From Candidatus Woesebacteria bacterium (GTDB lineage Bacteria; Patescibacteriota; Microgenomatia; UBA8517): 64,000 nucleotides of DNA. Under the pieces are notes generated by a model. It saw only the letters and a list, made by a program, of their open reading frames with translations, was not told where the DNA came from and did no database searches. Below are positions 1,707-54,261 of this stretch, in pieces (position 1 is the first letter of the stretch; each line of letters opens with the position of its first letter). The stretch lies in contig CP066693.1 in NCBI GenBank assembly GCA_016432525.1, forward strand, positions 614,175-678,174. The letters are read 5' to 3'. A program made the translations under genes and the position numbers.

Positions 1707-2624
1707 ATGAAAGTTTCCATCGCCATTACTTTGTTAAATGAAGAAAAGGCAATCAAATCTCTTTTAAATTCTCTGTTATCTCAAACACAAAACCCATCAG
1801 AGATCGTTATAGTTGACGCTGGATCGACCGATGAAACTATCAAAATTATAAAAAATTCTCAAAAGAAAAATAAATCGATAAAATTATTTGTCAAAAAAGG
1901 ATTAAATATCGCTCAAGGTAGAAATTTAGCTATCAAAAAATCAAAAAATGAAATAATTGCGATTATTGATGGAGGTTGCATTGCCAAAAAAGACTGGCTA
2001 GAAAAAATCACACAGCCTTTTGAAGATCCAAAAATTGAACACGTTGCTGGATTTTACGAAATGACAGGTGAATCGAATCTTCAAAAAGCTGCAAAATTAT
2101 TTCTTGGAGTTTTACCTCAGAATTTTAAACAAGATAATTTTCTCCCATCCGCAAGATCAATGGCTTTCAAAAAATCTTTTTGGAAAAGACTTGGAGGATT
2201 TGAAGAAAAATTTAGTTTTGCAGGAGAAGACACTCATTTTAACTACAAAGCTCTCCTAAATTACTCGAATATTGCGAGGCAAAAAAAAGCAATAGTATAT
2301 TGGGAAGTCCCCAAGAGCTTCAAAAGTTTAATTAGAAAATTCTTCTTATATGCAGTAGGAGATGGGGAAATGCTAAAAATTACCAAAAAATTTAATCACC
2401 ATAGCATTAAAATTTTTTCAATATATTTAAGATATCTAATAATGTTTTTGCTTTTCCCGTTTACGGCTATTTTATTAATAATTTATTTATTTTGGTCAAT
2501 TAATAAATTCTCAAAAATAAAAAAAACTTGGCAAACTACTATTCTAATCCCTATAATTCAAATAGCATCTGACTTCGCAGTCATGGCTGGTTTTCTATAT
2601 GGGATATCAAAAAGAAACAATTAA
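1707..2624 (+). CDS. Family 2 glycosyltransferase
   Basis: N-terminus reads SIAITLLNEEKAIKSLLNSL...VIVDAGSTDET with a DGG motif. Two TM helices lie at the C-terminus. Confidence 0.8.
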   Translation: MKVSIAITLLNEEKAIKSLLNSLLSQTQNPSEIVIVDAGSTDETIKIIKNSQKKNKSIKLFVKKGLNIAQGRNLAIKKSKNEIIAIIDGGCIAKKDWLEKITQPFEDPKIEHVAGFYEMTGESNLQKAAKLFLGVLPQNFKQDNFLPSARSMAFKKSFWKRLGGFEEKFSFAGEDTHFNYKALLNYSNIARQKKAIVYWEVPKSFKSLIRKFFLYAVGDGEMLKITKKFNHHSIKIFSIYLRYLIMFLLFPFTAILLIIYLFWSINKFSKIKKTWQTTILIPIIQIASDFAVMAGFLYGISKRNN

Positions 2625-3840
2625 AGGCGCCTCCTGGATTGGAGCTCTCCGCGTTACCACAAGAGTCATCGCTCTAATAAAAACAACAGTTATCGCACGC
2701 TTGCTCAGTCCTTCAGCCTTCGGAGTATTTGGTATATCTATGGTGGTGATGGCTCTCCTTGAAATACTTACAGAAACTGGTATTAATGTTTTTTTACTTC
2801 AAGAAAAGGATGATGTAGATGAATTTGTAAACACCTCATGGGTTGTTTCAATATTTAGAGGAGTATTGATCGCTATAATACTAGTTTTATGTTCGTCTCT
2901 GGTGGCATCCTTTTTTAAATCTCCAGAAAGTCAACCATTAATTATATTGGTAAGCTTGGTACCTTTAATTAGAGGATTTATCAATCCTTCAGAAATCAAG
3001 TTGCAAAAAGATTTAAAGTTCAAAAAAGACTTTGTGTTTAGATTTACAATTTTCACTTTTGATGCCCTGGTTGCAATCGTTGCAACCTTAATTACTAAAA
3101 ACGCCGCAGGAGCAATCTTTGGTTTAATCGCAGGGGCAATATTAGAAGTAGTATTGTCGTTCTTGATAGTAAAACCAAGGCCAAAATTCATCCTTGAAAT
3201 AGAAAAAACCCGTAAAGTATTGGATAGAGGAAAATGGATAACCGGCGCTGGAATTTTCGATTACCTTTTCGAAAATATAGATGATATAACAGTAGGCCGA
3301 TTTCTCGGATCTGGCCCGCTAGGTCTATATCAAATGGCTTATAAGCTTGCCACGCTTCCAATCACTGAAGTTGCTGATGTATTCGGTAAGGTAACTCTTC
3401 CAATCTATGTAAAAATATCCGGCGACACAAAAAGAATTAAGAGAGCTTTTATCAAATCAACGATAGGAATAGCCTTTCTAACGATTCCTTTTGGAATAGT
3501 ACTAATTCTCTTTTCTAAACAAATTATATTAATAATTCTTGGAAAAAACTGGCTAGATGCAGCTCCGGCTGTTCAATTTATAACCGTTTACGCAATTCTT
3601 CGTGCAATAATTAATCCTGCCCTAACTTTATTTCTATCAGTGAAAAAACAAGAATATGTTACTTCTGTAATTTTGCTCGGTACGATAACACTTGGAATTA
3701 GTATAATTCCTCTTACTGTGAAATTGGGACTAGTAGGAGCAGGAATATCAACAATAATAGCTGTAAGTGTTATGATACCGATGACGATATTTTATACAAT
3801 AAAGCTATTTAACGGAAAATGGACTTCAACGAACGAGTAA
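2599..3840 (+). CDS. Polysaccharide biosynthesis (MOP/Wzx-like) flippase
   Basis: 413 aa with 10-12 predicted TM helices in a Wzx-like arrangement. It overlaps the upstream GT2 by 26 nt. Confidence 0.65.
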   Translation: MGYQKETIKGASWIGALRVTTRVIALIKTTVIARLLSPSAFGVFGISMVVMALLEILTETGINVFLLQEKDDVDEFVNTSWVVSIFRGVLIAIILVLCSSLVASFFKSPESQPLIILVSLVPLIRGFINPSEIKLQKDLKFKKDFVFRFTIFTFDALVAIVATLITKNAAGAIFGLIAGAILEVVLSFLIVKPRPKFILEIEKTRKVLDRGKWITGAGIFDYLFENIDDITVGRFLGSGPLGLYQMAYKLATLPITEVADVFGKVTLPIYVKISGDTKRIKRAFIKSTIGIAFLTIPFGIVLILFSKQIILIILGKNWLDAAPAVQFITVYAILRAIINPALTLFLSVKKQEYVTSVILLGTITLGISIIPLTVKLGLVGAGISTIIAVSVMIPMTIFYTIKLFNGKWTSTNE

Positions 3841-4595
3841 TACCAGATGTTTCTGCAAACTTTCTATATCAAGAAGCATTAGCCAGATATAAATTCGCCC
3901 AAAAATACCTTAAGCCAAAATTCAAAGTATTGGATTTAGGATGCGGAACTGGATATGGCACAAAATTACTAGGCGAAAAAGTGCCCGAAATTATTGGAAT
4001 CGATATCAACAAAGAGGCTATAAATTTTGCGAAAAAAAATTATCCCAAAAAGGCAAATTTCAGAATTGGTAACGTTGAACTATTAAAATTTAAAGATAAT
4101 TATTTTAATTTAATTTGCTCTTTCGAGGTAATAGAACACCTTAAGAATCCACAAAAGAAATATCTTAAGGAAATAAAAAGAGTTTTAAAAAAAGACGGAA
4201 AAGTTATATTTTCAACACCTAACAAAGAAACAAGGTCACCAGAATCTGAAGTTTCAAGCCCATATCATTTTAGAGAATACAAATATTCTGAATTTAAAAA
4301 ACTTTTAAAGAAAAATTTTTCAAAAGTAGAAATCAAAGGGCAATTTAGATCCAAACGAACTAAAAAGGCATTAAAATCCTTTATGAATTCACAAAAAGGA
4401 AGACAAAAAATTGTAGGTTTCGACAAATTGAATTTTAGAAAACTTATTCCTAAAAAATACAAAGAGTGGATTTGGAAATACGTTGGATTTTTTTTTGGAA
4501 GAAGTGATCAAGCTTCACTTAATTTCAAAAATTTCCCAATTCATTCACAAAATATAAAAAATTGTGAATACTTTATAGCTATATGCGAAAAATAA
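3819..4595 (+). CDS. Class I SAM-dependent methyltransferase
   Basis: Motif I reads VLDLGCGTGYGT, and motif post-II follows at LKKDGKVIFSTPN. Confidence 0.75.
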   Translation: MDFNERVIPDVSANFLYQEALARYKFAQKYLKPKFKVLDLGCGTGYGTKLLGEKVPEIIGIDINKEAINFAKKNYPKKANFRIGNVELLKFKDNYFNLICSFEVIEHLKNPQKKYLKEIKRVLKKDGKVIFSTPNKETRSPESEVSSPYHFREYKYSEFKKLLKKNFSKVEIKGQFRSKRTKKALKSFMNSQKGRQKIVGFDKLNFRKLIPKKYKEWIWKYVGFFFGRSDQASLNFKNFPIHSQNIKNCEYFIAICEK

Positions 4596-6739
4596 AACTT
4601 TCTATAGTAATTGTTCATTATGGGGATATAATCAATCTTTGTAATTGTTTAAATTCAATCTTGGAAAGCAAATCTAGAACAATCACCGAAATTATAGTAG
4701 TAGATAATGATGAAGAGGAAACAATTCAAAAAGAACTTCTTACAAAATTTCCAAAAATTAAATACATCAAAAGTAAAGGTAACATTGGCTACGGGGCAGC
4801 CATAAACCTTGGAGTTACAAACTCAAAGGGTGATTATATATTAGTACTAAATTCAGATACTAAAATTTTGGCCCAAACAATCAATATTTTAATACAAGAA
4901 CTTGAAAACAGTCATCAAGCAGGTATTTTAGCCCCAAAATTACTTAATAATAATAGGGAGGAATATGAACAACTCGGATCTTCAGAACTTACTCCTCTAA
5001 GAGCAATTTTTTCGCTTTCATTTTTAAATAAAATTCTACCAAGTAACCCAATATCACGCTCTTATTTCAAAAAGCCAATAAAAGACAAAAAACCATACGA
5101 AGTAGATGTCGTTCCAGGATCGGCTATGGCTATCAGAAGAAAAGCATTCGAAGAAATTAATGGTTTCGACAGCAATTTCTTTCTATATTTTGAGGAATCA
5201 GATTTTTGTAAGAGAATCAAAGAGAAAGGCTGGAAAATATTTATAGTTCCAAATTCAAAACTAATTCATATTTGGGAAGGTAACACTCCAAGAACAAAAA
5301 AAATTAAAAAAATATTTGAGGGAAGTAGATATTATTATTTCAAAAAGCATTATGGAGTTCTAAATGCCTTAATTGTCGAAATTTTCGCTAGATTTTCAAA
5401 ATGGCATGGTTTGTTAATCTTAACCCTCCTTCTTGCTCTTCTCCTAAGATTCTATAGAATTCCACAAAATCTCATCTTTCATGGAGAATTGGGACACAAC
5501 TACCTTGCTATTAAAAATTTAGTTGAATTAAGGCAAATTCCACTTCTTGGCCCTCCTACTTCTCATCCCTGGCTTTCATTCGGTCCACTTTTTTATTGGA
5601 TTTTTGCACCTTTTTTGGTTTTATTTCATTACCAACCAGTTGCCGGCGCATATTTTTTCGCTATCGAAAATCTAATTCTTATAGTAATCAATTTCTATAT
5701 AATAAAGAAAATATTCAACAGTGAAATCGCAGCAATCTCCTCTTATTTAGTTGCAATTTCACCTTTGTGGATGGATTTGACCCGTCAATCTCGTTTCTTT
5801 TCTCTTTCAATCATTTTTCTTTATCCTTTTTTTTATTTCTTAATAAAAATCATTCAAAAAAAATCTCAAAAATTTCTAATCTTAGGATTTTTTTTAGGTC
5901 TCTCTCTAAGTTTTCATCTAACACCTCTTTTTTTGATTCCTTTCACTTTGCTAATTTTCTACATCAATAAAATCCTAGAACTTCAAAAAACAATCAGATT
6001 TTTGGCTGGCTTATTAATTACACAAACCCCTTTTTTTGTATATAATCTAACTCACAAATTTGAAATGTTAACAAAATTTGTTGAATGGGTTCCTTATAGA
6101 ACCCTGACCTCTCAAAAATCATTTTCAGTGAGTCTTTTATATGACTTCATAACTAAAAGTTTTATTACCGATTCCACACTTTCAAAAATCCTATTTTTTC
6201 TCCTTTTAGCAATTATTCTTAATTTAACATTCAAATTCGTAAAAAAAACCAAAAATCCAATTTCAGTGACTCTAATTTGGTTTTATTTTGGAATTATCAC
6301 ACTTTTTATTCATGGAAACCCGCCAAGCCACTACTTAATGCCTCTTTATTTCGTCCCAATTATTTTGCTCTCTTTTGCTCTTTCTAAATCAAATAAATTT
6401 GTTATGTTAGGCTTCCTTGTGGTCATAACTTTCCTAAATTTAAAATTTTATTTTTCAAAAAATTGGTTTTATATTCCAACCAATACAATTCAAAAAAATC
6501 AGACAGTTCCATATCAGTTACAAAACCAAGTTGTTGATTTCATCGTAAGTGATGCAAAAGGCCAGAAATACAACCTTCAAAGGAAAGGTTTTTCAGATCA
6601 ATTTGAAGGAAATTACGCACAAAATTATGTATATTTAGCCTGGCTAAAAGGTAACAAGCCTAGTGAAAATCCTCAAAATCTTGTTTATACAATTGTAGAG
6701 TCGCCTCCAGATATTTCAATAATTAAGAATATAAAATGA
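4583..6739 (+). CDS. Fusion of an N-terminal GT2 domain to a C-terminal GT-C-type (PMT/ArnT-like) multi-TM domain
   Basis: The N-terminus reads SIVIVHYGD...VVDND...GYGAAINLG with an FEESDF motif, typical of GT2. The C-terminal ~400 aa are polytopic, with an RFYRIP...GHNYLA...PPTSHPW loop reminiscent of GT-C family 39/83. Confidence 0.65.
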   Translation: MRKIKLSIVIVHYGDIINLCNCLNSILESKSRTITEIIVVDNDEEETIQKELLTKFPKIKYIKSKGNIGYGAAINLGVTNSKGDYILVLNSDTKILAQTINILIQELENSHQAGILAPKLLNNNREEYEQLGSSELTPLRAIFSLSFLNKILPSNPISRSYFKKPIKDKKPYEVDVVPGSAMAIRRKAFEEINGFDSNFFLYFEESDFCKRIKEKGWKIFIVPNSKLIHIWEGNTPRTKKIKKIFEGSRYYYFKKHYGVLNALIVEIFARFSKWHGLLILTLLLALLLRFYRIPQNLIFHGELGHNYLAIKNLVELRQIPLLGPPTSHPWLSFGPLFYWIFAPFLVLFHYQPVAGAYFFAIENLILIVINFYIIKKIFNSEIAAISSYLVAISPLWMDLTRQSRFFSLSIIFLYPFFYFLIKIIQKKSQKFLILGFFLGLSLSFHLTPLFLIPFTLLIFYINKILELQKTIRFLAGLLITQTPFFVYNLTHKFEMLTKFVEWVPYRTLTSQKSFSVSLLYDFITKSFITDSTLSKILFFLLLAIILNLTFKFVKKTKNPISVTLIWFYFGIITLFIHGNPPSHYLMPLYFVPIILLSFALSKSNKFVMLGFLVVITFLNLKFYFSKNWFYIPTNTIQKNQTVPYQLQNQVVDFIVSDAKGQKYNLQRKGFSDQFEGNYAQNYVYLAWLKGNKPSENPQNLVYTIVESPPDISIIKNIK

Positions 6740-7509
6740 AAGATAAAATATCAGCAGTTATTCTTACAAAAAATGAAGAGAAAAATATAAAAAACTGCCT
6801 TAAATATCTAAGATTCTGCGATGAAATTATCTTAATTGATGATTTTTCAAAAGACAAAACAACTAAATTTGCAAAAAAGTTTCGAGCAAAAATTTTCAAA
6901 AGAGAACTCAAAAATAATTTCGCTCTACAAAGAAACTTCGGGCTTATTAAGGCCAAAAATCCGTGGGTTTTATTTGTAGACGCTGATGAAGTTGTCAGTT
7001 CAGATCTTAAAAAAGAAATTATTGATAAAATTAAAAAACCTGATATTCAAGGTTACTTTCTAGTACGAAAAGATTATATTTTTGGTAAGGAGATGAAACA
7101 TGGAGAGTTTTCAACATATGGTTGGTTTGGGAATGCAAAGTTATTGAGATTAGCAAGAAAAAATGCTGGAAAATGGAAAAGAAATGTGCATGAATTTTGG
7201 GAAATAAAAGGAGAAACAAACTCCCTAAAAAATCCAATCCTTCATTATTCTCATCCTGATTTGAAAAGTTTTATTGATAATATTGATTCCTTTTCTTATT
7301 TTCACTCAAAAGCTCTCGAAAAAGAAGGTAAACAGGTAAGTCTTTTAAAAATAATCATTTGGCCAGTAGGAAAATTTGCTTACAACTATATATTTAGATT
7401 AGGTTTCCTTGACGGTTTAGAAGGGTTTATAGTAGCTATTATAATGAGTTTTCATTCTTTTCTCGCTTGGACCAGATTATGGATTCATTCAAAAGAAAAT
7501 TACAATTAA
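6736..7509 (+). CDS. Family 2 glycosyltransferase (WaaE/KdtX-like)
   Basis: N-terminus reads ISAVILTKNEEKNIKNCL...IILIDDFSKDKT with a DADE motif. Confidence 0.75.
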   Translation: MKDKISAVILTKNEEKNIKNCLKYLRFCDEIILIDDFSKDKTTKFAKKFRAKIFKRELKNNFALQRNFGLIKAKNPWVLFVDADEVVSSDLKKEIIDKIKKPDIQGYFLVRKDYIFGKEMKHGEFSTYGWFGNAKLLRLARKNAGKWKRNVHEFWEIKGETNSLKNPILHYSHPDLKSFIDNIDSFSYFHSKALEKEGKQVSLLKIIIWPVGKFAYNYIFRLGFLDGLEGFIVAIIMSFHSFLAWTRLWIHSKENYN

Positions 7510-8645
7510 ATTTATTATTTTTATACTTTATTTTGTTTCCTTTAGGTCAATTCGCCAAATTTAAGCAATTTAACTTAACTGATTTGCTAGTTTTGCTTTC
7601 CTTATTAATTTTTGTTTTTACAAAAGAAAAAAATTACCCAAAATCCTCCAAAGAAATTTTTTTCACAATCACAGTATTTATATTTTCTACCATTTTTTCT
7701 GTCATTTTTTTTGATTCTCAATCCATAAAACTAGGAATACCCTACTTAATTAGATTTATAAATTATTTAATATTTTATTTAGCAATTTTCGATTTACTTA
7801 AAGTCTATCCAAAAATGAAAAATGTCCTAATAAACTGTTTAATTTTGGATGGAATCATTGTTTCAATCCTGGGAATACTCCAATACATTCTTTTACCTGA
7901 TTTAAGATATTTATATTATTTTGGTTGGGACGACCATTATTTTAGGCTTGTTTCAACTTTTCTAGACCCGGCATTTACTGGCATAATTTTAGTTCTAACT
8001 GACATTCTTCTTTTCTCTAAACTCAAAAACAATAAAAAAATAGCTATCCCACTTATTTTCATAGTCACGACTGCTCTTCTTCTAACTTATTCGAGAAGTA
8101 GCTTTATAGCTCTAATAGTAAGCTCAGTTTTTTATATTCTTCAAAAAAACAAAAAAGTTATTGCATTAGTATTTCCGATATTATTTTTGATAAGTCTACC
8201 TTTTCTTCCCCGACCTTCAAGTGAGGGAGTAAAACTTGAAAGAACAAACTCAATAGTTTTAAAAGTCGAAAACTACAAAGATTCCTTAAAGTTAGCAAAA
8301 TTATCTCCAATTTTTGGAATTGGATTTGATAATGTCTGCGAAGGCAAAGTTAAAATTCTAAACAAAAATGATAGTTTCAGCTCTCATTCCTGTCAAGGTC
8401 TTGATAACAGTTTTCTTTTTATCTTGGTAACAACAGGACTAGCTGGAATCTTAAGTTATCTAGTTCTAGGTCACTCTTTAATTAAAGGTTTAAAAAAAGA
8501 AAATCTACCTATTGTAGTAGCAGCAATTTCGGCAATTCTAATCCACTCACTTTTTACAAACACTCTCTTCTATTCTTGGATTATGGGTTATATGGCCATA
8601 CTTCTAGGGAGCTTTTCTAGTTACCAGAAGAATAATTCACTTTGA
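7479..8645 (+). CDS. O-antigen ligase / Wzy_C-like polymerase-ligase family membrane protein
   Basis: Polytopic membrane protein with an LLTYSRSSFIALIV motif and a large periplasmic-type loop. The track start at 7467 is a TTG; the first in-frame ATG is at 7479. Confidence 0.55.
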   Translation: MDSFKRKLQLNLLFLYFILFPLGQFAKFKQFNLTDLLVLLSLLIFVFTKEKNYPKSSKEIFFTITVFIFSTIFSVIFFDSQSIKLGIPYLIRFINYLIFYLAIFDLLKVYPKMKNVLINCLILDGIIVSILGILQYILLPDLRYLYYFGWDDHYFRLVSTFLDPAFTGIILVLTDILLFSKLKNNKKIAIPLIFIVTTALLLTYSRSSFIALIVSSVFYILQKNKKVIALVFPILFLISLPFLPRPSSEGVKLERTNSIVLKVENYKDSLKLAKLSPIFGIGFDNVCEGKVKILNKNDSFSSHSCQGLDNSFLFILVTTGLAGILSYLVLGHSLIKGLKKENLPIVVAAISAILIHSLFTNTLFYSWIMGYMAILLGSFSSYQKNNSL

Positions 8646-9339
8646 GAATTTGCTCGGTTTTGTTTCCTGCAGAATCAATTGCTTTAACACTAAAATTATT
8701 ATCTCCATCAGAGAGTGTTGTCTGGTATTTAAATGATCCATCATCAGAAACCGAAACAAACCTATCATTAATAGTAATTTGAGTAGAAGGATCAGTCATC
8801 CCCTGTATAGATATTTGCTTATTTTTATCTCCCAAAAACTTATCTCCATCATGGGGACTCGAAATAGTCAATTTTGGAGCCTTTTTGTCCAAAGTTACCT
8901 TATAATGCTGAGATTCATTGCTTTTGTTTCCACTTTTATCTTTTGCAATTCCATAAAAACTATTAGCTCCATCACTTAAGTTAAACTCACTTGAAAAATT
9001 GCCATTGTTATCCGAAACAACATCCGTTTGAGTATCATTAAAATAAATAGTAACAGTAGCCCCAGCCTCAGTGTTTCCGCTTACTACGATCTTATTTTGA
9101 TTTGTAAAATCAGGGATGTAATTAAAATTTGGAGGAGGCGGGGGAGTTGTGTCGTTTTTTTGAATTGGCTGATTACTTTGTTTTATATCAGTTACAATTC
9201 CAGCAAATTTTGTAACAAGTGGAATCCCAAAAAAGACCATTAAAATTAATATTCCAATAGTCAAAACTCCAAAAACAAAAGCAGATCTGATACTTCTTTT
9301 TTCCTCCAAACGTGAAAGTCTGGAATAATATTTGCGCAT
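8617..9339 (-). CDS. Membrane-anchored protein with two Ig-like (Big-type) repeats and a poly-Pro linker
   Basis: An N-terminal TM segment is followed by PPPPP and repeated ...SGN/AGN...FS... beta-sandwich-like modules. The track start at 9366 (GTG) would overlap tRNA-Thr by 24 nt, so the ATG at 9339 is preferred. Confidence 0.45.
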   Translation of the reverse strand: MRKYYSRLSRLEEKRSIRSAFVFGVLTIGILILMVFFGIPLVTKFAGIVTDIKQSNQPIQKNDTTPPPPPNFNYIPDFTNQNKIVVSGNTEAGATVTIYFNDTQTDVVSDNNGNFSSEFNLSDGANSFYGIAKDKSGNKSNESQHYKVTLDKKAPKLTISSPHDGDKFLGDKNKQISIQGMTDPSTQITINDRFVSVSDDGSFKYQTTLSDGDNNFSVKAIDSAGNKTEQILKVNYSSGN

Positions 9340-9342
9340 CTG

Positions 9343-9415
9343 AGCCGATGGGTGGCTTCGAACCACCGACCTCTGCTTTACGAAAGCATTGCTCTACCAG
9401 CTGAGCTACATCGGC
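9343..9415 (-). tRNA. tRNA-Thr (anticodon CGT)
   Basis: Folded by hand. Acceptor stem is gccgatg/catcggc, D-arm is gctc/gagc, anticodon stem-loop is tgct-TTCGTAA-agca, and T-arm is ggtgg-ttcgaag-ccacc. CCA is not encoded. Confidence 0.85.
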
Positions 9416-23925: not shown

Positions 23926-23996
23926 TGCACCTGTAGCTCAAAGGCAGAGCATTCCGCTAGATCGGAAGGTTTAGAGGTTCGAATCCTCTCGGGTGC
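23926..23996 (+). tRNA. tRNA-like gene with a canonical acceptor, D-arm and T-arm but an apparent 6-nt anticodon loop (CUAGAU), so the anticodon is unassigned
   Basis: Acceptor stem is gcacctg/cgggtgc with one U-G pair, D-arm is gctc-aaaggca-gagc, anticodon stem ttccg/cggaa is perfect with loop ctagat, variable loop is ggttt, and T-arm is agagg-TTCGAAT-cctct. A candidate -35 TTGACC lies at 23893-23898. Confidence 0.5.
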
Positions 23997-24000
23997 TATG

Positions 24001-24988: not shown

Positions 24989-25659
24989 AAATTACTCTAA
25001 TTCACGGAGAAGATACCGAAAAATCTAGACAAAGATATATAAATATAATCAACTCTCTAAAAAAGAAAAACTGGGAAATAATTAAAATTAATCTCGAAGA
25101 TAAGCTAAAATTTTCTGATAAAGTTTCTACCTCAAGTAGCCTTTTTTCAGACAAAACTCTTTTTGTAGTTGATAAATTCAACAAGCTTTCAGTTTCAGAG
25201 CTTTCAAAATTAAAAAATCTTAAAACAGATTCAAATATCCTTTTCTGGCAATCGGGCAAAGCTTTACAAAAAAATCTTAAACTTCTCCCAAAAGAGACCA
25301 ATATAGAAAAATTCGAACTTCCCTTTTTAATTTTTAAATTTCTAGATTCTTTTCAACCCAAAAATTCAGTTATTTGTATTAAACTTTTTCATGATGTTTT
25401 AGAAGAGGAACCTGTAGAGCTAGTTTTTGCCATGTTGGCATCTCTAGTTAAAGATTTGTATTGGGCTTCTGTCTCTCCAGAAACTCTTCCTTATCAGCCC
25501 TGGCGCGTAAATAAATTAAAGTCTCTAGGACAAAAATTTGGAGGGTTAAAACTCAAAAAACTTATTCAAACCATGGCAGAATTAGATATAAAATCAAAAA
25601 CTTCTCAAATAAATTTAATAACTTCCCTTGACCTCCTTATTTTCAAAGAACTAAAATGA
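24985..25659 (+). CDS. DNA polymerase III delta subunit-like (HolA-like, short)
   Basis: N-terminus reads KITLIHGEDTEKSRQRYINII, and the C-terminal helical domain reads LIQTMAELDIKSKTSQINLITSLDLLI. Its position next to ruvC and dnaE is consistent. Confidence 0.45.
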   Translation: MKITLIHGEDTEKSRQRYINIINSLKKKNWEIIKINLEDKLKFSDKVSTSSSLFSDKTLFVVDKFNKLSVSELSKLKNLKTDSNILFWQSGKALQKNLKLLPKETNIEKFELPFLIFKFLDSFQPKNSVICIKLFHDVLEEEPVELVFAMLASLVKDLYWASVSPETLPYQPWRVNKLKSLGQKFGGLKLKKLIQTMAELDIKSKTSQINLITSLDLLIFKELK

Positions 25660-26996
25660 AGCTCATGCAAACCCTTTTTGCAACCAGTGGAATTAGAGGA
25701 GACGCCGAAAGTTTATTAACCAATCAATTCTGCTTTGATGTTGGACGTGCTTTTGCTATTTTTCTCAAAAACAATAATCAAAAAAATAAAGCTGCAATAG
25801 GTATGGATCCAAGACCTTCCAGTAGTCGTATTCAAAAAGCAGTAATGTCTGGCTTAATTAAAGAGGGGATTGAAGTTACAAATGAAGGTATCACTCCAAT
25901 TCCTTCAATGAACTATATTTTATTGGCAGACAAAACCTTCGGAGGGTCAATAATGATTACAGGGAGCCATATTAAATCTCACTTAAACGGGATTAAATTT
26001 TTTATTTTCGAAGAGGAGTTGCTTAAAAAAGACGAACTAGAAATTGATAAAATTTATTTTGATCTCAAAGAAAAAGTTAGTTTTGAAGAAAAAGAAATTC
26101 CCCAACCCCAACAAAATGCCCTCAATTTTTACAAAAAACATTTAATGAAGTTAGCATCTGTTCCATATCCTAATTGGAAAGTTGTTGTCGACACTGGAAA
26201 TGGCGCACAAACAATGGTTATTCCTTCACTTTTTCGAGAGCTGGGAATTGAAATCATACCTGTAAACAATTCACTTGATCAACAAATTCTCTCAAGAGAT
26301 ACAGAGGATGCTAAAGAATTTCAAAGCTTGATGGACAAAGTAAAGGAAGTTAGTGCCGATTTTGGTGTCGCTTATGATTCAGATGGAGATAGAACTGTTT
26401 TTGTAAACGAAAATGGTGAATATATTCCCGGCGATTATTCTGCTAGCTTGATTGCTAAAGAGGCTCAAGGTGACACAATTGTAACACCCATAAGTACTTC
26501 TCAAGTCATCGATAATATAAGAAAAAATGTAGTACGTACAAAAGTAGGCTCTCCTCAGGTTAGTGCAAAAATGAAGGAGATTAACGCTCATTTTGGCTTT
26601 GAAGCAAATGGCGGTGGAATATTTAAAGATATGTTAAGCCGCGATGGCGGGCGCACATCAATTGAAGTTTTGAATATATTAAAGGCTCACAACAAAAAAT
26701 TATCAGAATTAATAGCTGAATTACCTAAATTTTACAATTACAAAGACAAAGTAGATTACAAATGGGAACTAAAAGATAAAATAATTAATGATGCGCGTGA
26801 AAACTTTAAAGGAATCAAAGTTGAAGAGCTTGATGGTCTAAAAATTTGGATTGATGAAAAAACCTGGATACTTTTTAGATCTTCAGGTAATGCACCTGAA
26901 TTCAGAGTCTTTGCAGAAAGCAATGAGGATCAAAAAGCAAAAGATCTTCTTAAAAAAGGAATTGATTTTGTAAATCAAATCATAAGTTCAAACTAA
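25656..26996 (+). CDS. Phosphoglucomutase/phosphomannomutase (alpha-D-phosphohexomutase) family protein
   Basis: N-terminus reads ATSGIRGD. The active-site Ser region reads ITGSHIKSHLNGIKF, which is atypical against TASHNP. Metal-binding DSDGDR is present. Confidence 0.7.
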   Translation: MKLMQTLFATSGIRGDAESLLTNQFCFDVGRAFAIFLKNNNQKNKAAIGMDPRPSSSRIQKAVMSGLIKEGIEVTNEGITPIPSMNYILLADKTFGGSIMITGSHIKSHLNGIKFFIFEEELLKKDELEIDKIYFDLKEKVSFEEKEIPQPQQNALNFYKKHLMKLASVPYPNWKVVVDTGNGAQTMVIPSLFRELGIEIIPVNNSLDQQILSRDTEDAKEFQSLMDKVKEVSADFGVAYDSDGDRTVFVNENGEYIPGDYSASLIAKEAQGDTIVTPISTSQVIDNIRKNVVRTKVGSPQVSAKMKEINAHFGFEANGGGIFKDMLSRDGGRTSIEVLNILKAHNKKLSELIAELPKFYNYKDKVDYKWELKDKIINDARENFKGIKVEELDGLKIWIDEKTWILFRSSGNAPEFRVFAESNEDQKAKDLLKKGIDFVNQIISSN

Positions 26997-28066
26997 TGAT
27001 TAATTTAAATTTAAGTGAAGAAATAGAAACCGCCGACAAAGGCAAAATTCTTGAGTCAATAAGATCTCTTGATGGACAAATTTCCCAAGTTTTAGAAGAA
27101 ACCAAAGCTTTTTACCTTCCAGACAGTTACAAAGATATCTTAAATGTCGTAGTTTGCGGAATGGGTGGATCAGCTCTAGGTGGACGCATAGTTAAAGCTC
27201 TGACAACTCCCGCTTCTCGAATTCCTATAGAAATAATAACTGACTACACTCTACCATATTACGTTGGAGAAAAAACTTTAGTAATTCTCTCTTCGTATTC
27301 AGGAAATACTGAAGAAACAATATCAACTCTTTCAAATGCACAAAATAAAGGTGCAAAAATTTTTGGAGTCACAACAGGAGGAAAACTCAAAGATTTGTTA
27401 ATCGAAGCAAAACTTCCAGCATATTTATTTAACCCAAAAAATAATCCTTCAGGCCAGCCCAGAATGGCGCTTGGTTATTCAATTGCCATAAATCTAGTAG
27501 TCTTGGCTAAGTTGGGAGCATTTAATGTCTCAGAAAATGATCTTAAAAAAGCAGTTAAAACTTCGTCGAAATTTATTAAATTATTTGACTCCACAGTTAC
27601 TGAAAACGAAAATATAGCCAAAAAGCTTGCTCAAAAACTATATTTAAAAGCTCCAATTTTGTTTGCAAGCGGCCATCTTCTCGGAATTGCTCATGCTTTC
27701 AAAAACCAAGTTAACGAAAATTCAAAAACTTTTAGTACTCTTTTTGATTTGCCAGAAGCAAACCATCATCTTTTAGAAGGTTTTGGTTTCCCCAAATCTT
27801 CAAAACATGTGTTTCACTTTTTATTTTTTGAATCTAAAAACTACACTCTAAACGCTCAAAAAAGATATCCCATTACAGAAGATGTTGTAAAAAAAGAAGG
27901 CTACGAGTTTAGTGTTTATAAAACTCTCTCGAAAGAAAAACTTGAAGAAATATTTGAAATTCTTGTTCTAGGATCCTATTTAAGTTTTTATTTAGCTCTA
28001 TTAAATGAAATAGATCCCTCACAAATCCCTTGGGTAGATTATTTCAAAAAAGAACTAGCAAAATAA
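26996..28066 (+). CDS. Bifunctional phosphoglucose/phosphomannose isomerase (SIS domain)
   Basis: Two SIS motifs are present: VVCGMGGSALGGRIV and VILSSYSGNTEET. Confidence 0.7.
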   Translation: MINLNLSEEIETADKGKILESIRSLDGQISQVLEETKAFYLPDSYKDILNVVVCGMGGSALGGRIVKALTTPASRIPIEIITDYTLPYYVGEKTLVILSSYSGNTEETISTLSNAQNKGAKIFGVTTGGKLKDLLIEAKLPAYLFNPKNNPSGQPRMALGYSIAINLVVLAKLGAFNVSENDLKKAVKTSSKFIKLFDSTVTENENIAKKLAQKLYLKAPILFASGHLLGIAHAFKNQVNENSKTFSTLFDLPEANHHLLEGFGFPKSSKHVFHFLFFESKNYTLNAQKRYPITEDVVKKEGYEFSVYKTLSKEKLEEIFEILVLGSYLSFYLALLNEIDPSQIPWVDYFKKELAK

Positions 28067-28091
28067 ATTCTTATTCTGTATAGTATTTATA

Positions 28092-30380
28092 ATGTCCGAT
28101 TTAACATTATTCTTCAAAGATATAAGTAAAACTGACATCCCTAAGGTTGGAGGAAAAGGAGCTAATTTGGGTGAAATGTACAACGCCGGATTTCCTGTTC
28201 CTCCAGGCTTTGCAGTTACAGTTGCCTCTTACGATCTCTTTTTAACTGAAAATAAACTACTTGAAAAAATTACTGAAATTCTAAAAGACACTGATGTCAA
28301 TAACACTGAAAGTCTGGCTAAAGCTTCAGAAAAAATTCAAAAATTAATAATCAAAAGTGATATTCCTGAGGATGTTGCTAATGATACTATCCGTTCTTAC
28401 AAAAAGATTTCAGGTTTTTTCAAACAGGCTTTAGTTGCAGTACGTAGTTCAGCAACGGCAGAAGATCTTCCCGATGCCTCGTTTGCGGGCCAACAGGCAA
28501 CTTTTCTCAATGTAAAAGGCGAAGCAAATTTGCTTATAAAAATTCGTGAATGCTGGGCTTCTCTCTTTACAGAGCGAGCAATTTTTTATAGAGTTCAAAA
28601 TAAAATTCCACACGAAAAAGTAAAAATCTCTGTAATAATTCAAAAAATGATTCAATCTTATGTCTCTGGTGTCATGTTTACTATAGATCCAGTTACAAAC
28701 GAAAAAGACAGAATTATAATCGAGTCAGTCTGGGGTTTAGGTGAAATGATAGTCCAAGGCTCAGTGGTTCCAGATCATTACGTTGTTCAAAAAGGGACGA
28801 ATGCAATTCTTTCTAAAGAAGTTTCAGATCAGCACATACAACTTGTAAAAGAAGGAGTAGTTACAAAAGAAAGAGATGTTCCTAAATCACAAATTCCACT
28901 CCAAAAAATTTCCAATGAAGAAATAATTAAACTTGCCAAAATTGGCCAAAAACTTCAAGATCATTATTACCATCCTCAAGATGTTGAATGGGCAAAAGAA
29001 GGTGACAACCTTTATATTGTTCAAACTCGCCCTGTTACAACTATTAAAGAAACTACAAAAACAATTAGAAGAGAGGCAAGGACCAAAAAACTTGGCGATG
29101 AAGATATCACCCTTCCTGAAAAACCAATTTTAATTGGATCTCCAGCTTCTGTTGGGATTGGAACAGGTCGCGTCAAAATTATAAAAACTCCCAAGGAAAT
29201 AGGAAAAATGCAAACTGGTGATGTTTTGGTTTCCAAAATGACCTCGCCTGATTTTGTTCCAGCAATGAAAAAGGCTTCAGCCATAATTACTGACGAAGGA
29301 GGTCCAACTTCTCACGCAGCTATCGTTTCTAGAGAACTAGGAGTTCCTTGTGTAGTTGGAACAAAAGTAGCAACTACTCTATTAAAGGAAGGTTACGCTG
29401 TTACTGTTGATGGCGCAAAAGGAACTGTTTATTTAGGAAGTAAGGTCAAAATTCAAGAAAGTGAACAAAAAGTTGATTTGAATAAAAAATATGCTCATAC
29501 CAAAACAGCGACTAAAATTTATGTAAATCTAGCCGAACCCGAAAGAGCAAAGGAGGTTTCTAAGCTTAACGTTCAAGGAGTAGGGCTTTTAAGGGCAGAA
29601 TTTATGATTGCAGAAATAGGGATTCATCCCAAAGAAGCAATCAAACAAAAAAAACAAGCAAGCTTTATTGACAAATTAGCCAAGGATATTACAATTTTCT
29701 GTAAAAACTTTTATCCTCGTCCAGTAGTCTATCGTGCAACTGATTTTAAAACAAACGAATATCGCGCTCTTCCAGGAGGAAAAGCTTGGGAACCAGTTGA
29801 ACCAAATCCTTTAATGGGATTTCGCGGAGCCTTCCGTTATGTAACCTCTCCAGAAGTTTTTAATTTAGAACTTCAGGCAATTAAAAAGGTTCGAGAAAAA
29901 TATAATAATCTTTGGCTCATGACTCCTTATGTTAGGTCAGTAGATGAATTAGCTCGTGTTCGACGTCTTGTTGCAACGGAAGGCCTTTTCGAAAGTAACA
30001 CTTTTAAATTTTTGATGATGGTAGAAATTCCAGTCAATGTTATCCTTATAGAGGAGTTTATCAAAGTTGGAATTGATGGAGTTTCAATTGGATCAAACGA
30101 TCTTACAATGTTGACACTAGGCACAGATAGAGATAACGCAGAAGTTCGTGGAGCTTACAACGAGCGCTCAGAGGCAATTCTCTGGTCTCTGAAAAGAGTT
30201 ATAAAAACTTGTAATAAATATAAAATTACTAGCTCTATTTGCGGCCAAGCTCCGTCAACTTACGATGATCTTGTGAAGAAGTTGGTTAAATATGGTATAA
30301 CTAGTATCTCAGTTAATCCGGACGCAGTAGGTCGGGTTCGAGGAGTAGTTGCACAAATAGAAGAAGAATTAATAAAATAA
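28092..30380 (+). CDS. ppsA: Phosphoenolpyruvate synthase (PEP-utilising enzyme family)
   Basis: The ATP-grasp N-terminus reads KVGGKGANLGEM, the phospho-His domain reads GGPTSHAAIVSRELGVPCVVG, and a C-terminal PEP-binding TIM barrel follows. Confidence 0.8.
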   Translation: MSDLTLFFKDISKTDIPKVGGKGANLGEMYNAGFPVPPGFAVTVASYDLFLTENKLLEKITEILKDTDVNNTESLAKASEKIQKLIIKSDIPEDVANDTIRSYKKISGFFKQALVAVRSSATAEDLPDASFAGQQATFLNVKGEANLLIKIRECWASLFTERAIFYRVQNKIPHEKVKISVIIQKMIQSYVSGVMFTIDPVTNEKDRIIIESVWGLGEMIVQGSVVPDHYVVQKGTNAILSKEVSDQHIQLVKEGVVTKERDVPKSQIPLQKISNEEIIKLAKIGQKLQDHYYHPQDVEWAKEGDNLYIVQTRPVTTIKETTKTIRREARTKKLGDEDITLPEKPILIGSPASVGIGTGRVKIIKTPKEIGKMQTGDVLVSKMTSPDFVPAMKKASAIITDEGGPTSHAAIVSRELGVPCVVGTKVATTLLKEGYAVTVDGAKGTVYLGSKVKIQESEQKVDLNKKYAHTKTATKIYVNLAEPERAKEVSKLNVQGVGLLRAEFMIAEIGIHPKEAIKQKKQASFIDKLAKDITIFCKNFYPRPVVYRATDFKTNEYRALPGGKAWEPVEPNPLMGFRGAFRYVTSPEVFNLELQAIKKVREKYNNLWLMTPYVRSVDELARVRRLVATEGLFESNTFKFLMMVEIPVNVILIEEFIKVGIDGVSIGSNDLTMLTLGTDRDNAEVRGAYNERSEAILWSLKRVIKTCNKYKITSSICGQAPSTYDDLVKKLVKYGITSISVNPDAVGRVRGVVAQIEEELIK

Positions 30381-30385
30381 ATAAA

Positions 30386-31666
30386 ATGGCAAAAATTCAA
30401 AAGGTTTGGGCAGTTGAAATATTAGACTCAAGAGCAAACCCCACTGTTGAGTGTGCAATACAGCTCGATTCAGGAGCAGTAGCTGTTGCTTCAGTTCCAT
30501 CAGGAGCTTCGACAGGTACTCACGAAGCATTGGAGTTAAGAGATAATGACCCTGAACGTTTCAAAGGTAAAGGTGTGGTTAAAGCCGTGACTAACGTAAA
30601 TCAAGTTTTAGGCCCAGCCATTGTTGGGATGGATCCAACAGACCAAGATGGAGTTGATAATCGATTAAAAGGTTTAGATTCAACACCAAATAAATCAAAG
30701 CTTGGAGCAAATGCAATTCTTTCTGTTTCCTTAGCAAATGCAAAAGCAGCTAGTATAGCCAATAATTTTGCGCCTTATAAATGGGTTAACCAGCTTGCGC
30801 AAAGAAAAGGAATAGTAGTTCAAACCTTAAAAGTTCCAACACCAGTTTTTAATATGATTAACGGAGGTCTTCATGGAGCAGGAAACCTTGATTTCCAAGA
30901 ATTTTTTGTGATTCCGGCTTCCTCTAAAAAATTCTCAGATGGACTTCGTGAAGGCGCAGAAATTTATTTAAGTATCGGTGAAAATCTAAAACGTCGTGGA
31001 GCTATCCACTCAGTCGGCGATGAAGGAGGTTACGCTCCTAATCTTTTTACAAATGCAGATGCATTAGAAATCCTTGTCGAAACAATCAAACAAACTCCTT
31101 ATGCTATCGGTCGTGATGTATTTTTAGGTCTTGATGTCGCAGCTTCTCATTTCTTTAACGGCAACGCTTACTCAATAAGAGACAAATCAGCTCCAGTAGA
31201 AGAAAATGGAATGCTTGATTACTACAGAGAACTTAATGGGACCTATCACCTAGCAATTCTTGAAGATCCTTTAAACGAAGATTCCTGGAGTGGATGGAAA
31301 AATATAACTCAAACATTGGGTGCGGAAGTCTTAATAGTAGGTGATGATCTTTTGGCAACTAACCCTCAAAGAGTCCAAAAGGCAACTGCAGAGCACGCAT
31401 GTAATGCAATTTTGGTTAAACCTAACCAAATAGGAACAGTCACAGAAACCTTAGAAGTTATTAAAATGGCAAGAGATGCCAATTGGAAAATTATTATTTC
31501 TCATAGATCAGGTGAAACAAATGATTGGTTTATAGCAGATTTTGGAGTTGGAGTAGGAGCTGACTATGCAAAATTTGGAGCCCCCGCAAGAGGCGAACGT
31601 GTAGCCAAATACAATAGACTAAGCTCAATTGAAGTAGAGTTGTCCCTCGCAAATCAAAATGCCTGA
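30386..31666 (+). CDS. eno: Enolase
   Basis: N-terminus reads AVEILDSRANPTVE, and the signature LVKPNQIGTVTE / SHRSGETND is present. Confidence 0.9.
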   Translation: MAKIQKVWAVEILDSRANPTVECAIQLDSGAVAVASVPSGASTGTHEALELRDNDPERFKGKGVVKAVTNVNQVLGPAIVGMDPTDQDGVDNRLKGLDSTPNKSKLGANAILSVSLANAKAASIANNFAPYKWVNQLAQRKGIVVQTLKVPTPVFNMINGGLHGAGNLDFQEFFVIPASSKKFSDGLREGAEIYLSIGENLKRRGAIHSVGDEGGYAPNLFTNADALEILVETIKQTPYAIGRDVFLGLDVAASHFFNGNAYSIRDKSAPVEENGMLDYYRELNGTYHLAILEDPLNEDSWSGWKNITQTLGAEVLIVGDDLLATNPQRVQKATAEHACNAILVKPNQIGTVTETLEVIKMARDANWKIIISHRSGETNDWFIADFGVGVGADYAKFGAPARGERVAKYNRLSSIEVELSLANQNA

Positions 31667-33206
31667 AACTAAATTCGCCCTCCTCGTCATTCTCGATGGA
31701 TTTGGAATAGCACCTGCATCAGTTGGTAACGCCATAACTTCAGCTAACTTAATTAATATTACAAGAGTGACTGCATCTTACCCACACACCCAACTAAGAG
31801 CATCTGGAAAAGCAGTTGGTTTACCAGAAGGTGAGCCAGGTAACACTGAAACAGGCCATTTAAATTTAGGCGCGGGAAGAATTGTTTATCAGGACTTAGA
31901 GCGAATTAATATGTCTATTGCAGACGGCTCTTTTTTTGAAAATAAGACCTTAATTCAAGCAATCAATCACTGCAAAGAAAAAAATTCCAATCTACATGTA
32001 ATGGGGCTTATTGGAGGCGGAGGTGTTCATTCTAATAAAAATCATCTTTTCGCACTTATTCACTTAGCAAGGCTTCAAAATTTTAATCGACTTTTTATTC
32101 ACCTCTTCACGGATGGTCGCGACTCAAATCCCACTTCTTCCAAAATTTATATAAAAGAAGTAGAAGATGTAACAAAAAAAGAACAAACAGGGAAAATAGC
32201 TTCAATAATGGGGCGTTATTGGGCAATGGATAGAGATAATCGCTGGGAAAGAACATCTAAAGCCTACAATGCTTTAACAAAAGGGGAAGGAAATAAAGCC
32301 AAAACACCTTTTGAAATTATAGATAATTCTTATAGTCTTAAAAAAACAGATGAGTTCATTGAGCCAGCTCTTATTGTAGATAATCAAAATAATCCTATCG
32401 GTTTAATTAAAGATAATGATTCAGTTATATTTTTTAACTTTAGAATTGATAGACCAAGGCAACTAACTAGAAATTTTGTACAAAAAGAGCCTCTAAAAAA
32501 TTTATGTTTCGTAACCATGACAGAATATGACAAAGAATTTGAATCCTACGCTGTAAAAGTTGCTTATCCTCGTGAGCTTGTGAACATGCCACTTTCAAGA
32601 GTTATTTCTGAAGCAGGACTAAAACAACTTCGTGTTGCCGAATCAGAAAAAGAACGTTTTGTCACTTTTTTCTTTAATGGACAAAGGGAATTTGCATTCA
32701 CAGGAGAAAAAAGAATAATTGTTCCTTCACCTAATGTAGTAACTTACGATTTAAAACCAGAAATGTCAGCATATGAAACTACCGACAAACTTCTAAAAGA
32801 GCTTAGAAACGCTGAAATTCCTTACTCCTTTGCGTTAATAAATTACGCAAATCCCGATATGGTAGGTCACACAGGGGATCTGAATGCCGCTATAAAGGCA
32901 GTTAAGATAGTAGATGAATGCTTGGGTCGACTTATTAGTTTCATAATAGCCTATGGTGGAGTCCTGTTAGTTACAGCAGATCACGGAAACTGCGAGGAAA
33001 TGATCGATTTAAAAACAGGAGAAATTAACACCGAACACACGTCAAATCCAGTACCATTTATAGCTGTTTCAAAAGATTTTGCAGGAACACAAGTTAACAT
33101 TCAAAGTGGAATTCTTGCTGATATTGCCCCAACTATTCTCAAGATTCTAGAACTTAATCAGCCCACAGAAATGACTGGCCGCAATTTATTAGAAGGATTA
33201 CTTTAA
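31659..33206 (+). CDS. gpmI: 2,3-bisphosphoglycerate-independent phosphoglycerate mutase
   Basis: N-terminus reads LVILDGFG. Alkaline-phosphatase-superfamily motifs are present, including the catalytic Ser region and ADHGNCE. Confidence 0.9.
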   Translation: MPETKFALLVILDGFGIAPASVGNAITSANLINITRVTASYPHTQLRASGKAVGLPEGEPGNTETGHLNLGAGRIVYQDLERINMSIADGSFFENKTLIQAINHCKEKNSNLHVMGLIGGGGVHSNKNHLFALIHLARLQNFNRLFIHLFTDGRDSNPTSSKIYIKEVEDVTKKEQTGKIASIMGRYWAMDRDNRWERTSKAYNALTKGEGNKAKTPFEIIDNSYSLKKTDEFIEPALIVDNQNNPIGLIKDNDSVIFFNFRIDRPRQLTRNFVQKEPLKNLCFVTMTEYDKEFESYAVKVAYPRELVNMPLSRVISEAGLKQLRVAESEKERFVTFFFNGQREFAFTGEKRIIVPSPNVVTYDLKPEMSAYETTDKLLKELRNAEIPYSFALINYANPDMVGHTGDLNAAIKAVKIVDECLGRLISFIIAYGGVLLVTADHGNCEEMIDLKTGEINTEHTSNPVPFIAVSKDFAGTQVNIQSGILADIAPTILKILELNQPTEMTGRNLLEGLL

Positions 33207-53571: not shown

Positions 53572-54260
53572 AAAAACAAATTTACAAAATAAGATCATCA
53601 ATAACCAAAAAAATAAAATCTAAATCACGCTATTTTTTGGCTACAAAAAGTCTTAAACCTTTAAGTAGAAAGTTCGGCTTTGACAGGGGAACTCCTATCG
53701 ATAGATTCTGGATTGAATCATTTTTAAAAGAAAACAGAAGGCAAATTAAAGGAAAATGTTTAGAGATTACAGACAACTTCTACATCAAAAAATTTGGTCT
53801 TTCTAAAGTCAAAACAAGAGATGTTTTGGATATTGATATTAAAAACAAAAAAGCAAATATTCACGGAGATTTAAGAAATCTCAAAAACAAAATTAAAGAC
53901 AACTCTTATGATTGTGTAATCTTAACCCATGTTTTGGGCGCAATAGATGAATATGAAAAAGCGCTTTTAGAAATAAAAAGAATTCTAAAGCCCGGTGGAG
54001 TTTTACTTTTGACATCCTCTTGCTTTAGTCCGATATACATCCAAGGTCCTAAAAATTACTGGAGATTCACACCGGATGGAGCAAAACATGTTTTTGGAAA
54101 TATTTTTGGTGAGAGAAAAGTCAAAGTTAAATCTTATGGAAATGTACTTACTGGCCAATGTTTTTGGGTAGGTATGTCTCAAGAAGAATTAAGCAAATAT
54201 GAACTTGAATATAACGACCCCGAATTTCCATGTATAGTGGGAGTTTTAGCAAGAAAATAA
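53568..54260 (+). CDS. Class I SAM-dependent methyltransferase
   Basis: CLEITDNF...DCVILTHVLGAI...LKPGGVLLLT resembles the Methyltransf_11/23 family. Confidence 0.7.
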   Translation: MKKQIYKIRSSITKKIKSKSRYFLATKSLKPLSRKFGFDRGTPIDRFWIESFLKENRRQIKGKCLEITDNFYIKKFGLSKVKTRDVLDIDIKNKKANIHGDLRNLKNKIKDNSYDCVILTHVLGAIDEYEKALLEIKRILKPGGVLLLTSSCFSPIYIQGPKNYWRFTPDGAKHVFGNIFGERKVKVKSYGNVLTGQCFWVGMSQEELSKYELEYNDPEFPCIVGVLARK

Positions 54261-54261
54261 T

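Follow-up and report, generated by a model that had tools for sequence, protein, structure and literature searches.

A natural fusion of GT2 and GT-C glycosyltransferases in a surface-glycan gene cluster of the Microgenomates group

In the window analysed here, that is, a 64,000-nucleotide stretch of DNA from a Candidatus Woesebacteria bacterium, one open reading frame of a glycan gene cluster joins a GT2 glycosyltransferase to a GT-C-like membrane domain. The question raised by this locus is what the two enzymes gain from sharing a polypeptide chain, and especially whether one half makes the lipid-linked sugar that the other half uses, as had been proposed in a sequence-only reading. The open reading frame is uninterrupted, and its parts follow one another in this order:

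4583..6739, forward strand: whole fusion open reading frame, 718 aa plus stop
4583..5296, forward strand: GT2 / GT-A catalytic domain (aa 1–238), predicted cytoplasmic
5297..5398, forward strand: conserved linker (aa 239–272), with the basic amphipathic helix KKIKKIFEGSRYYYFKKHY and then a hydrophobic helix
5399..6454, forward strand: GT-C membrane domain (aa 273–624) of about 11 TM helices
6455..6736, forward strand: conserved C-terminal alpha/beta domain (aa 625–718, 94 aa), predicted extracytoplasmic

The in-frame fusion of a GT2 catalytic domain with an ArnT/PMT-like GT-C domain is borne out by the analysis. The first half scores above the gathering threshold of Pfam PF00535 and has a GT-A Rossmann-like fold, the second half scores above that of PMT_2 and has the GT-C fold, and both folds come from a confident AF2 model (pLDDT 95 overall). 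Moreover, the same architecture is common to 112 full-length homologs with 33–58% identity on independent contigs, and all the homologs that carry names belong to the Microgenomates group. NCBI lists an identical protein under the name 'glycosyltransferase [Candidatus Woesebacteria bacterium]', encoded by a contig of 916 kb; the homolog search found it on two contigs. An assembly or sequencing artefact, in which a frameshift joins two genes, would agree with a split in the relative L015 that could be due to one base, but such an artefact is extremely improbable and is rejected, because more than 110 homologs from independent samples and contigs carry the same continuous architecture; the identical protein on two contigs and a pLDDT of 95–98 at residues 241–300, which span the junction, also speak against it. 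The fusion is thus confirmed as real. Its junction, formerly placed near nt 5480, is in frame as claimed but lies at about aa 270–273 (nt ~5390–5400), while nt 5486–5488 form the codon of the conserved Glu302 in loop 1. No description of a GT2–GT-C fusion of this type was found in the open-access literature, and the family is an uncharacterised one.

The GT2 half retains the conserved motifs VDN (40–42), LN(P/S)D (89–92), GFD (194–196), FEE.D (203–207) and H229. Among the 112 sequences, D92 and D196 are invariant and E204, E205 and D207 are 97–99% conserved; these residues would contribute to a metal/nucleotide motif of the DxD type and to a candidate catalytic base, both of which are preserved. 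Against the specific NCBIfam models the half scores 52–57 bits, far short of every curated cut-off (200–425). For example, the WbbL-type rhamnosyltransferase model TIGR01556 gives the window protein 51.8 bits against a cut-off of 200.55, and it matches 40 of 40 family members, every score being under the cut-off. Judged by these scores, the GT2 half is related to the TIGR01556 subfamily, and is not a member of it by the curated cut-off. In both structure and sequence comparison, DPMS, GtrB and ArnC come well behind the elongating GT2 enzymes as relatives. A polyprenyl-phosphate sugar synthase (DPMS / GtrB / ArnC / PpgS type) is an unlikely identity for this half, its closest sequence and structural relatives over the whole catalytic domain lying outside that group.

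The polytopic GT-C-like domain proposed earlier is also present, but its length of roughly 400 aa is better described as about 350 aa of TM helices plus the conserved 94-aa C-terminal domain; the latter has no family match and is also found in stand-alone GT-C relatives. The predicted topology (N-in, 11-TM, C-out) agrees with the positive-inside rule, with an ambiguous helix at 336–347, and no solved chain was matched by a single-sequence search with the GT-C half. The conserved positions of the half, all predicted to face outward, are E302 in F.GE.G, PL.GP.TSH.W (320–330), W.PYR (502–506) and HG.PP.HY (577–584). Position 302, which the topology would place on the outer face in the first extracytoplasmic loop, is acidic in 112 of 112 sequences (glutamate in 101, aspartate in 11). 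The loop-1 motif of PMTs is of the 'DE'/DxD type. Of the PMT/ArnT-type first loop noted earlier, the conserved acidic residue is there, but the motif F-x-G-E-x-G differs from that of PMTs.

Few parts of the protein are as well conserved as the linker between the halves. The alignment of the 112 full-length homologs runs unbroken across the junction, and F245, S248, R249, Y252, F253, K255 and G258 are near-invariant. In polyprenyl-phosphate glycosyltransferases, as in DPMS and GtrB, a basic amphipathic helix followed by a hydrophobic helix is expected ahead of TM1, so the linker agrees equally with the competing models of the GT2 half.

The fusion gene stands in a cluster with the following neighbours:

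1707..2624, forward strand: g1, a membrane GT2 of 305 aa whose fold is a minimal hyaluronan/cellulose-synthase-like one, the conserved first gene of the cluster
2599..3840, forward strand: Wzx/MOP flippase (Polysacc_synt_3, 232 bits)
3819..4595, forward strand: SAM-dependent methyltransferase, in a variable insert between Wzx and GT-C
6736..7509, forward strand: g5, a 257-aa GmaR-like GT2 (E 5.6e-19 to the solved GmaR chain), a conserved downstream neighbour
7467..8645, forward strand: Wzy_C-family polytopic protein (55 bits), the conserved last gene of the cluster
8617..9366, reverse strand: convergent gene, whose Ig-like/Glucodextran_B product is membrane-anchored and has a conserved D-T-T-P-P-P-P-P motif in juxtamembrane position

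The earlier assignment of the neighbours as GT2, Wzx, methyltransferase, GT2 and Wzy_C is right. The domain of the Wzy_C protein is compatible with polymerase, ligase or O-oligosaccharyltransferase activity, and g1 is a synthase-like membrane GT2 rather than a polyprenyl-phosphate sugar synthase. The description of the cluster as a complete Wzx/Wzy-type pathway, however, is not supported: a priming phosphoglycosyltransferase (PF00953 or PF02397), a chain-length regulator and an LCP-type ligase were all absent from the window ORFs scanned (41 of the 45 of at least 150 aa), and neither the cluster nor the scanned ORFs yielded a DPMS/GtrB/ArnC-type enzyme. With neither the primer nor such a synthase found, the pathway is not complete here, and no gene identified in the window would supply the GT-C half with its donor. 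A gene for the priming enzyme may lie on another part of the 916 kb contig. The window contains, in addition, a 1535-aa protein of GT2+GT2+GT4 composition, and a second cluster has a weak PMT_2-like ORF (58950–60497), which BLASTP does not detect as a paralog.

The loci of relatives, found with a 14-sequence alignment, show how the two halves are combined in the family. Among 150 representatives, the GT-C domain is stand-alone in 75 and fused to a GT2 in 37; the stand-alone form occupies the same conserved cluster of g1, Wzx, GT-C, g5, Wzy_C and the convergent Ig-like gene. In relatives devoid of the GT2, the Wzx gene directly adjoins the GT-C gene, with a median gap of 35 nt (mostly at most 53 nt from the Wzx stop), versus 820–5610 nt in fused loci. 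This space holds the variable insert, in which the GT2 is usually accompanied by a methyltransferase and occasionally by a GT4 too; the methyltransferase lies between Wzx and GT-C in 8–9 of 11 fused loci. In addition, true split genes occur, with the break directly after the hydrophobic helix of the linker, by an ATGA overlap in L010 and by three in-frame stops in L012. The unfused GT2 genes retain a hydrophobic tail of their own, which suggests that membrane anchoring has been selected for. Other species join further pairs of neighbours from this cluster (g1+Wzx, Wzx+methyltransferase, as well as a second GT2+PMT_2), and the recurrence of such pairs points to co-localisation and not to one specific chemical coupling.

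Several known systems resemble parts of this arrangement. The ArnT / PMT / ALG-type GT-C enzymes (PMT_2) resemble the GT-C half; as a point of difference, about a third of the fusion's own GT-C family carries an N-terminal GT2. WbbL-type rhamnosyltransferases and GlfT1/GlfT2 are GT2 enzymes that act in the cytoplasm, where they lengthen a glycan linked to polyprenyl diphosphate; the GT2 half is not their equivalog, scoring far under the cut-offs, and unlike the window protein they are free peripheral enzymes with no GT-C fusion. Ppm1 of Mycobacterium tuberculosis is a natural fusion of a GT2 with a polytopic membrane domain that is encoded by two genes in related species, but its GT2 is a true polyprenyl-phosphate mannose synthase, its membrane domain is not a GT-C and its domain order is reversed. 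GtrA/B/C, ArnC/ArnT, CsdAB-CflA and GacIJKL resemble the window cluster in grouping the genes for a GT2, a flippase and a GT-C. In these three- and four-component systems the GT2 is a DPM1/GtrB-type synthase, whereas neither the fused GT2 nor g1 nor g5 is of that type, and the window cluster additionally has the Wzy_C protein. A Wzx-type flippase beside the GT-C is matched by GacK/GacL (PMC9574508, PMC10821137). The lactococcal PSP pathway (WpsA-J) offers a precedent: its cytoplasmic glycosyltransferases lengthen a lipid-linked unit, which is flipped by Wzx and then polymerised and transferred by GT-Cs (PMC10821137); all of them act on one lipid-linked glycan, and the cluster needs no phosphoglycosyltransferase (PMC10821137, PMC9574508). 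Unlike the window, this pathway has no natural GT2–GT-C fusion, and its priming falls to a GacI-like GT2 aided by a small activator, a primer that is not recognisable in the window.

Taking the computed folds, conserved catalytic-type residues (present in both halves across the 112 homologs), three gene states and synteny together with a topology, substrates, order of steps and purpose of the fusion that we infer, the reading slightly favoured is that of a core GT-C acting outside the cytoplasm, with an elongating GT2 tethered to it as an optional cytoplasmic module, in a Wzx-dependent cell-surface glycan cluster. The GT-C domain would be the core enzyme, with E302, W.PYR and HG.PP.HY on the outer face of the membrane; its donor would be a polyprenyl-phosphate-linked sugar or glycan flipped by the adjacent Wzx, and its acceptor, perhaps a chain under construction, a wall polymer or a protein of the cell surface, would be extracytoplasmic. 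The GT2 half would be an optional WbbL/GlfT/ppGalNAc-T-like module that adds one sugar from a nucleotide sugar onto the lipid-linked glycan before flipping, and would not make the donor of its partner; fusion would anchor it at the membrane, beside the lipid-linked substrate and the remaining assembly line.

That the GT2 half makes a polyprenyl-monophosphate sugar inside and the fused GT-C uses the same donor outside, as a self-contained GtrB/GtrC, ArnC/ArnT or GacI/GacL pair, seems unlikely. Such a role would suit the position of a GT2 beside a GT-C, which is how three- and four-component glycosylation systems are classically laid out (PMC9574508), the adjacent Wzx-type flippase, as in GacIJKL (PMC10821137), the conserved basic amphipathic helix tethering the GT2 half to the membrane, and a cluster left with no other candidate donor synthase since g1 is synthase-like. 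Yet DPMS, GtrB and ArnC rank low among the relatives of the GT2 half, and the coupling of donor synthesis to use claimed earlier is unsupported, because the GT-C lacks the GT2 half in most clusters of the family, with the gene surroundings unchanged and no compensating donor synthase nearby.

It is similarly doubtful that the fusion is mechanistically meaningless, a neutral by-product of overlapping, translationally coupled genes in a compact genome, with the two halves serving unconnected steps, perhaps even separate glycans. The differing neighbour pairs fused in different species, the multidomain 1535-aa protein of the window and the interleaving of fused, split and stand-alone forms in the GT-C domain tree (which carries no support values) would all be expected under it; the strong conservation of the linker, the maintenance of the fused form down to ~33% identity and the anchoring tail of the unfused GT2s are not. 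More tentatively, and with rather low confidence, the pairwise fusions could mark a physical membrane assembly line, a single complex of cytoplasmic glycosyltransferases, flippase and outward-facing GT-C that passes a lipid-linked glycan across, the protein being a single-chain 'inside-outside' glycosyltransferase with both sites acting on the same carrier lipid from opposite faces; in a rarer variant, the GT2 half may feed the GT-C half directly.

Hardly any work has addressed the cell envelopes of candidate phyla radiation bacteria such as Woesebacteria, whose surface glycans are probably important in attachment to host cells. The tethered-GT2 reading is set in a conserved Microgenomates surface-glycan locus with a fixed core (synthase-like GT2, Wzx, GT-C, GT2 and Wzy_C) and a variable insert. 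The fusion itself is moderately interesting: a natural single-chain enzyme with an active site on each membrane face would suit structural work on lipid-linked glycan assembly, and the fused, split and absent series offers ready-made controls. It also carries a warning for annotation, namely that a GT2 beside or fused to a GT-C is not automatically a donor synthase. Finally, the convergent Ig-like/Glucodextran_B gene is syntenic in nearly all relatives, and its product might, speculatively, be an acceptor of the glycan.

The fusion gene lies in a window of low GC content (about 30%) and is tightly packed in a same-strand operon, where the upstream methyltransferase gene ends 13 nt past the fusion start codon and the fusion stop overlaps the start of the next gene as ATGA:

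4583..6739, + strand: fusion ORF, 718 aa, uninterrupted

In this one ORF, Pfam recognizes Glycos_transf_2 (aa 7–192, 68 bits), Glyco_transf_7C (aa 171–226) and PMT_2 (aa 335–479, 41 bits vs. a cut-off of 26.1). The homolog search gave more than 110 full-length fusion homologs from independent assemblies (about 685–800 aa, 33–58% identity, 90–100% coverage) with the same Pfam architecture. Moreover, their alignment crosses the junction without a break, and the linker is among the best-conserved stretches, with F245, S248, R249, Y252, F253, K255 and G258 near-invariant. An origin of the fusion as an assembly artefact is therefore so unlikely that it can be given almost no weight, and the in-frame GT2-to-GT-C fusion proposed in the sequence-only reading is confirmed. 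Its junction, placed there around nt 5480, is actually at about nt 5390–5400, nt 5486–5488 being the codon of E302.

The AlphaFold2 model, with 112 homologs as input, has a mean pLDDT of 95.3 and a pTM of 0.91, with nothing below 50, and the protein is divided as follows:

aa 1–238: GT-A domain, with V-D-N 40–42, L-N-(P/S)-D 89–92, G-F-D 194–196, F-E-E-x-D 203–207 and H229
aa 239–272: linker, a basic amphipathic helix (Lys/Arg at 7 of 19 residues), then a hydrophobic helix
aa 273–624: membrane domain, about 11 TM helices
aa 625–718: conserved alpha/beta C-terminal domain

In the alignment of the GT-A domain, D92 (L-N-(P/S)-D) and D196 (G-F-D) are invariant. No signal peptide was found in the fusion protein, and the positive-inside pattern points to an N-in, C-out topology, in which the short hydrophobic helix 336–347 is ambiguous. 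By this topology the GT2 half would be cytoplasmic, and the loop-1 acid E302 (position 302 is acidic in 112 of 112 sequences) and the motifs PL.GP.TSH.W, W.PYR and HG.PP.HY would be outside.

It had been proposed that the GT2 half makes a lipid-linked sugar donor and the GT-C half uses the same donor outside, a mechanism that is decided by the type of GT2 in the N-terminal half. The best 50 Foldseek matches of this half are almost all ppGalNAc-transferases; in a profile search against PDB sequences, ppGalNAc-Ts cover residues 5–236, and DPMS, GtrB and ArnC cover only the first ~105–125 residues, that is to say, the nucleotide-binding part. Among family members, the NCBIfam rhamnosyltransferase model matches 40 of 40 and GlfT1 26 of 40, and the 25 NCBIfam families listed for them include no ArnC, PpgS or Dol-P-hexose synthase model. 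Since every such match of the GT2 half is far under the curated cut-off, this half is, on profile evidence, a relative of WbbL/GlfT-type elongating enzymes outside every named equivalog.

With just the membrane half (aa 270–718) as query, an exhaustive search gave 2229 relatives, and architectures were counted over their best 150 cluster representatives: 75 are stand-alone full-length GT-C proteins (72 of which begin with Met), 37 are full-length fusions, and the rest are 3 fused fragments, 2 proteins with another N-terminal extension and 33 fragments. In a scan of species-representative genomes, 33 loci were found, and all those informatively named belong to the Microgenomates group (Woese-, Roizman-, Levy-, Chisholm-, Gottesman- and Amesbacteria). 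Many MAG records with the Microgenomates-type cluster, one of them a 938 kb "chromosome", are titled "uncultured Gammaproteobacteria" or "Pseudomonadales" (L006, L008, L014, L016–L019, L023, L024, L026–L029, L033, L035 and L038); on these small MAGs such titles seem to be placeholders or taxonomic errors.

When all six-frame ORFs of 38 relatives' loci around the GT-C gene (L001–L038) were searched with the window operon proteins, a conserved core emerged, composed of the membrane GT2 g1, Wzx, GT-C, the GT2 g5, Wzy_C and a convergent Ig-like protein; beyond these, a LysM protein is often found. The WbbL-like GT2 occurs in three states: fused (14 loci and the window), as a separate gene directly upstream of GT-C (L010, L012 and L015), or absent. 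Where it is absent, GT-C follows the end of Wzx at a median of 35 nt (in 9 of the 12 loci the distance is 53 nt or less); where it is fused, the gap of 820–5610 nt contains a methyltransferase (8–9 of 11 loci) and in some cases a GT4. The splits in L010 and L012 are clearly genuine: L010 has an ATGA stop/start overlap, L012 has an RBS-like spacer as well as three in-frame stops, and in both the free GT2 gene has its own hydrophobic tail. The third split, in L015, could be due to a frameshift. In all three, the break falls after the SRFYYFKKH.G helix and before TM1. In an NJ tree of GT-C domains, which carries no support values, the fused, split and absent states are interleaved.

Fusions of other kinds are also found in the cluster. 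L024 has g1 fused to Wzx (6119–8203, 695 aa, Pfam-confirmed), and a 688-aa ORF of similar length lies in L027 (6146–8209); Wzx is fused to the methyltransferase in L022 (1966–3945, 660 aa), L014 carries a second, paralogous GT2+PMT_2 fusion (3716–6304, 863 aa), and two fusion homologs (P0032 and P0036) have an insert of roughly 350–400 aa between the halves. In the window itself there is a further multidomain protein:

47194–51801, + strand: giant 1535-aa GT2+GT2+GT4 protein, first gene of a second glycan cluster (47194–63324)

Such varied fusions of neighbours argue that the fusion reflects co-localisation in one membrane-associated pathway instead of a particular donor-to-user coupling. That the GT2 half supplies the donor of the GT-C half is improbable, and it is equally improbable that the fusion is mechanistically neutral. 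The reading to which we incline, by a modest degree of confidence, is that GT-C is the core extracytoplasmic transferase, acting with the adjacent Wzx, and that the GT2 is an optional cytoplasmic elongating enzyme, which would be tethered to the membrane by GT-C and would lengthen the lipid-linked glycan by one sugar ahead of flipping. The GT2 domain would usually arrive with the methyltransferase as a variable insert, as in serotype-variable loci. No enzyme of the DPMS/GtrB/ArnC type and no priming phosphoglycosyltransferase came to light in the cluster or among the window ORFs of at least 150 aa, of which 41 of 45 were scanned; thus the Wzx/Wzy-type pathway, earlier called complete, is incomplete as far as the window goes, and nothing in cis accounts for the donor of the GT-C half.

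Both domains are of known kinds, and the protein is already in databases under a generic name (the identical NCBI protein is "glycosyltransferase [Candidatus Woesebacteria bacterium]", on a 916 kb contig; Woesebacteria are members of the Microgenomates group, Patescibacteria). The searchable literature yielded no account of an ArnT/PMT-like GT-C joined to a WbbL/GlfT-like GT2. The distribution of the family seems limited to a single CPR lineage, and its fused, split and absent series, with the conserved cluster, offers a useful starting point for work on the surface glycans of CPR bacteria.

Other features of the window are as follows:

8617–9366, − strand: membrane-anchored Ig-like/Glucodextran_B protein, convergent, always adjoining Wzy_C, with orthologs in L001–L036
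9529–10167, − strand: protein with two LysM domains joined by a Ser/Thr/Pro-rich linker
23927–23997, + strand: tRNA-like gene (ARAGORN, no identity assigned, two-base anticodon call)
25656–33206, + strand: sugar-phosphate and lower-glycolysis genes (PGM/PMM, bacterial PGI, PPDK/PEP synthase-like enzyme, enolase, iPGM)
58950–60497, + strand: 515-aa ORF of the second cluster, matching PMT_2 below threshold (21 bits, E 4e-4)

The Ig-like protein has a conserved juxtamembrane motif, D-T-T-P-P-(P/A)-P-P (NDTTPPPPPNF in the window), and might serve the PMT-like GT-C, or the Wzy_C protein, as an O-glycosylation acceptor. The two-LysM protein is syntenic in many relatives, and its linker composition is not kept everywhere. 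In streptococci, GT-C enzymes are reported to O-glycosylate disordered regions rich in S/T (10.1101/2024.05.05.592596). The 515-aa ORF may be another GT-C, and BLASTP found no similarity between it and the GT-C half of the fusion. The second cluster also contains kinase-like genes, a methyltransferase, a polysaccharide deacetylase, a GT4 and three more GT2 genes, and the glycolysis run is followed by LexA and UvrB/UvrC.
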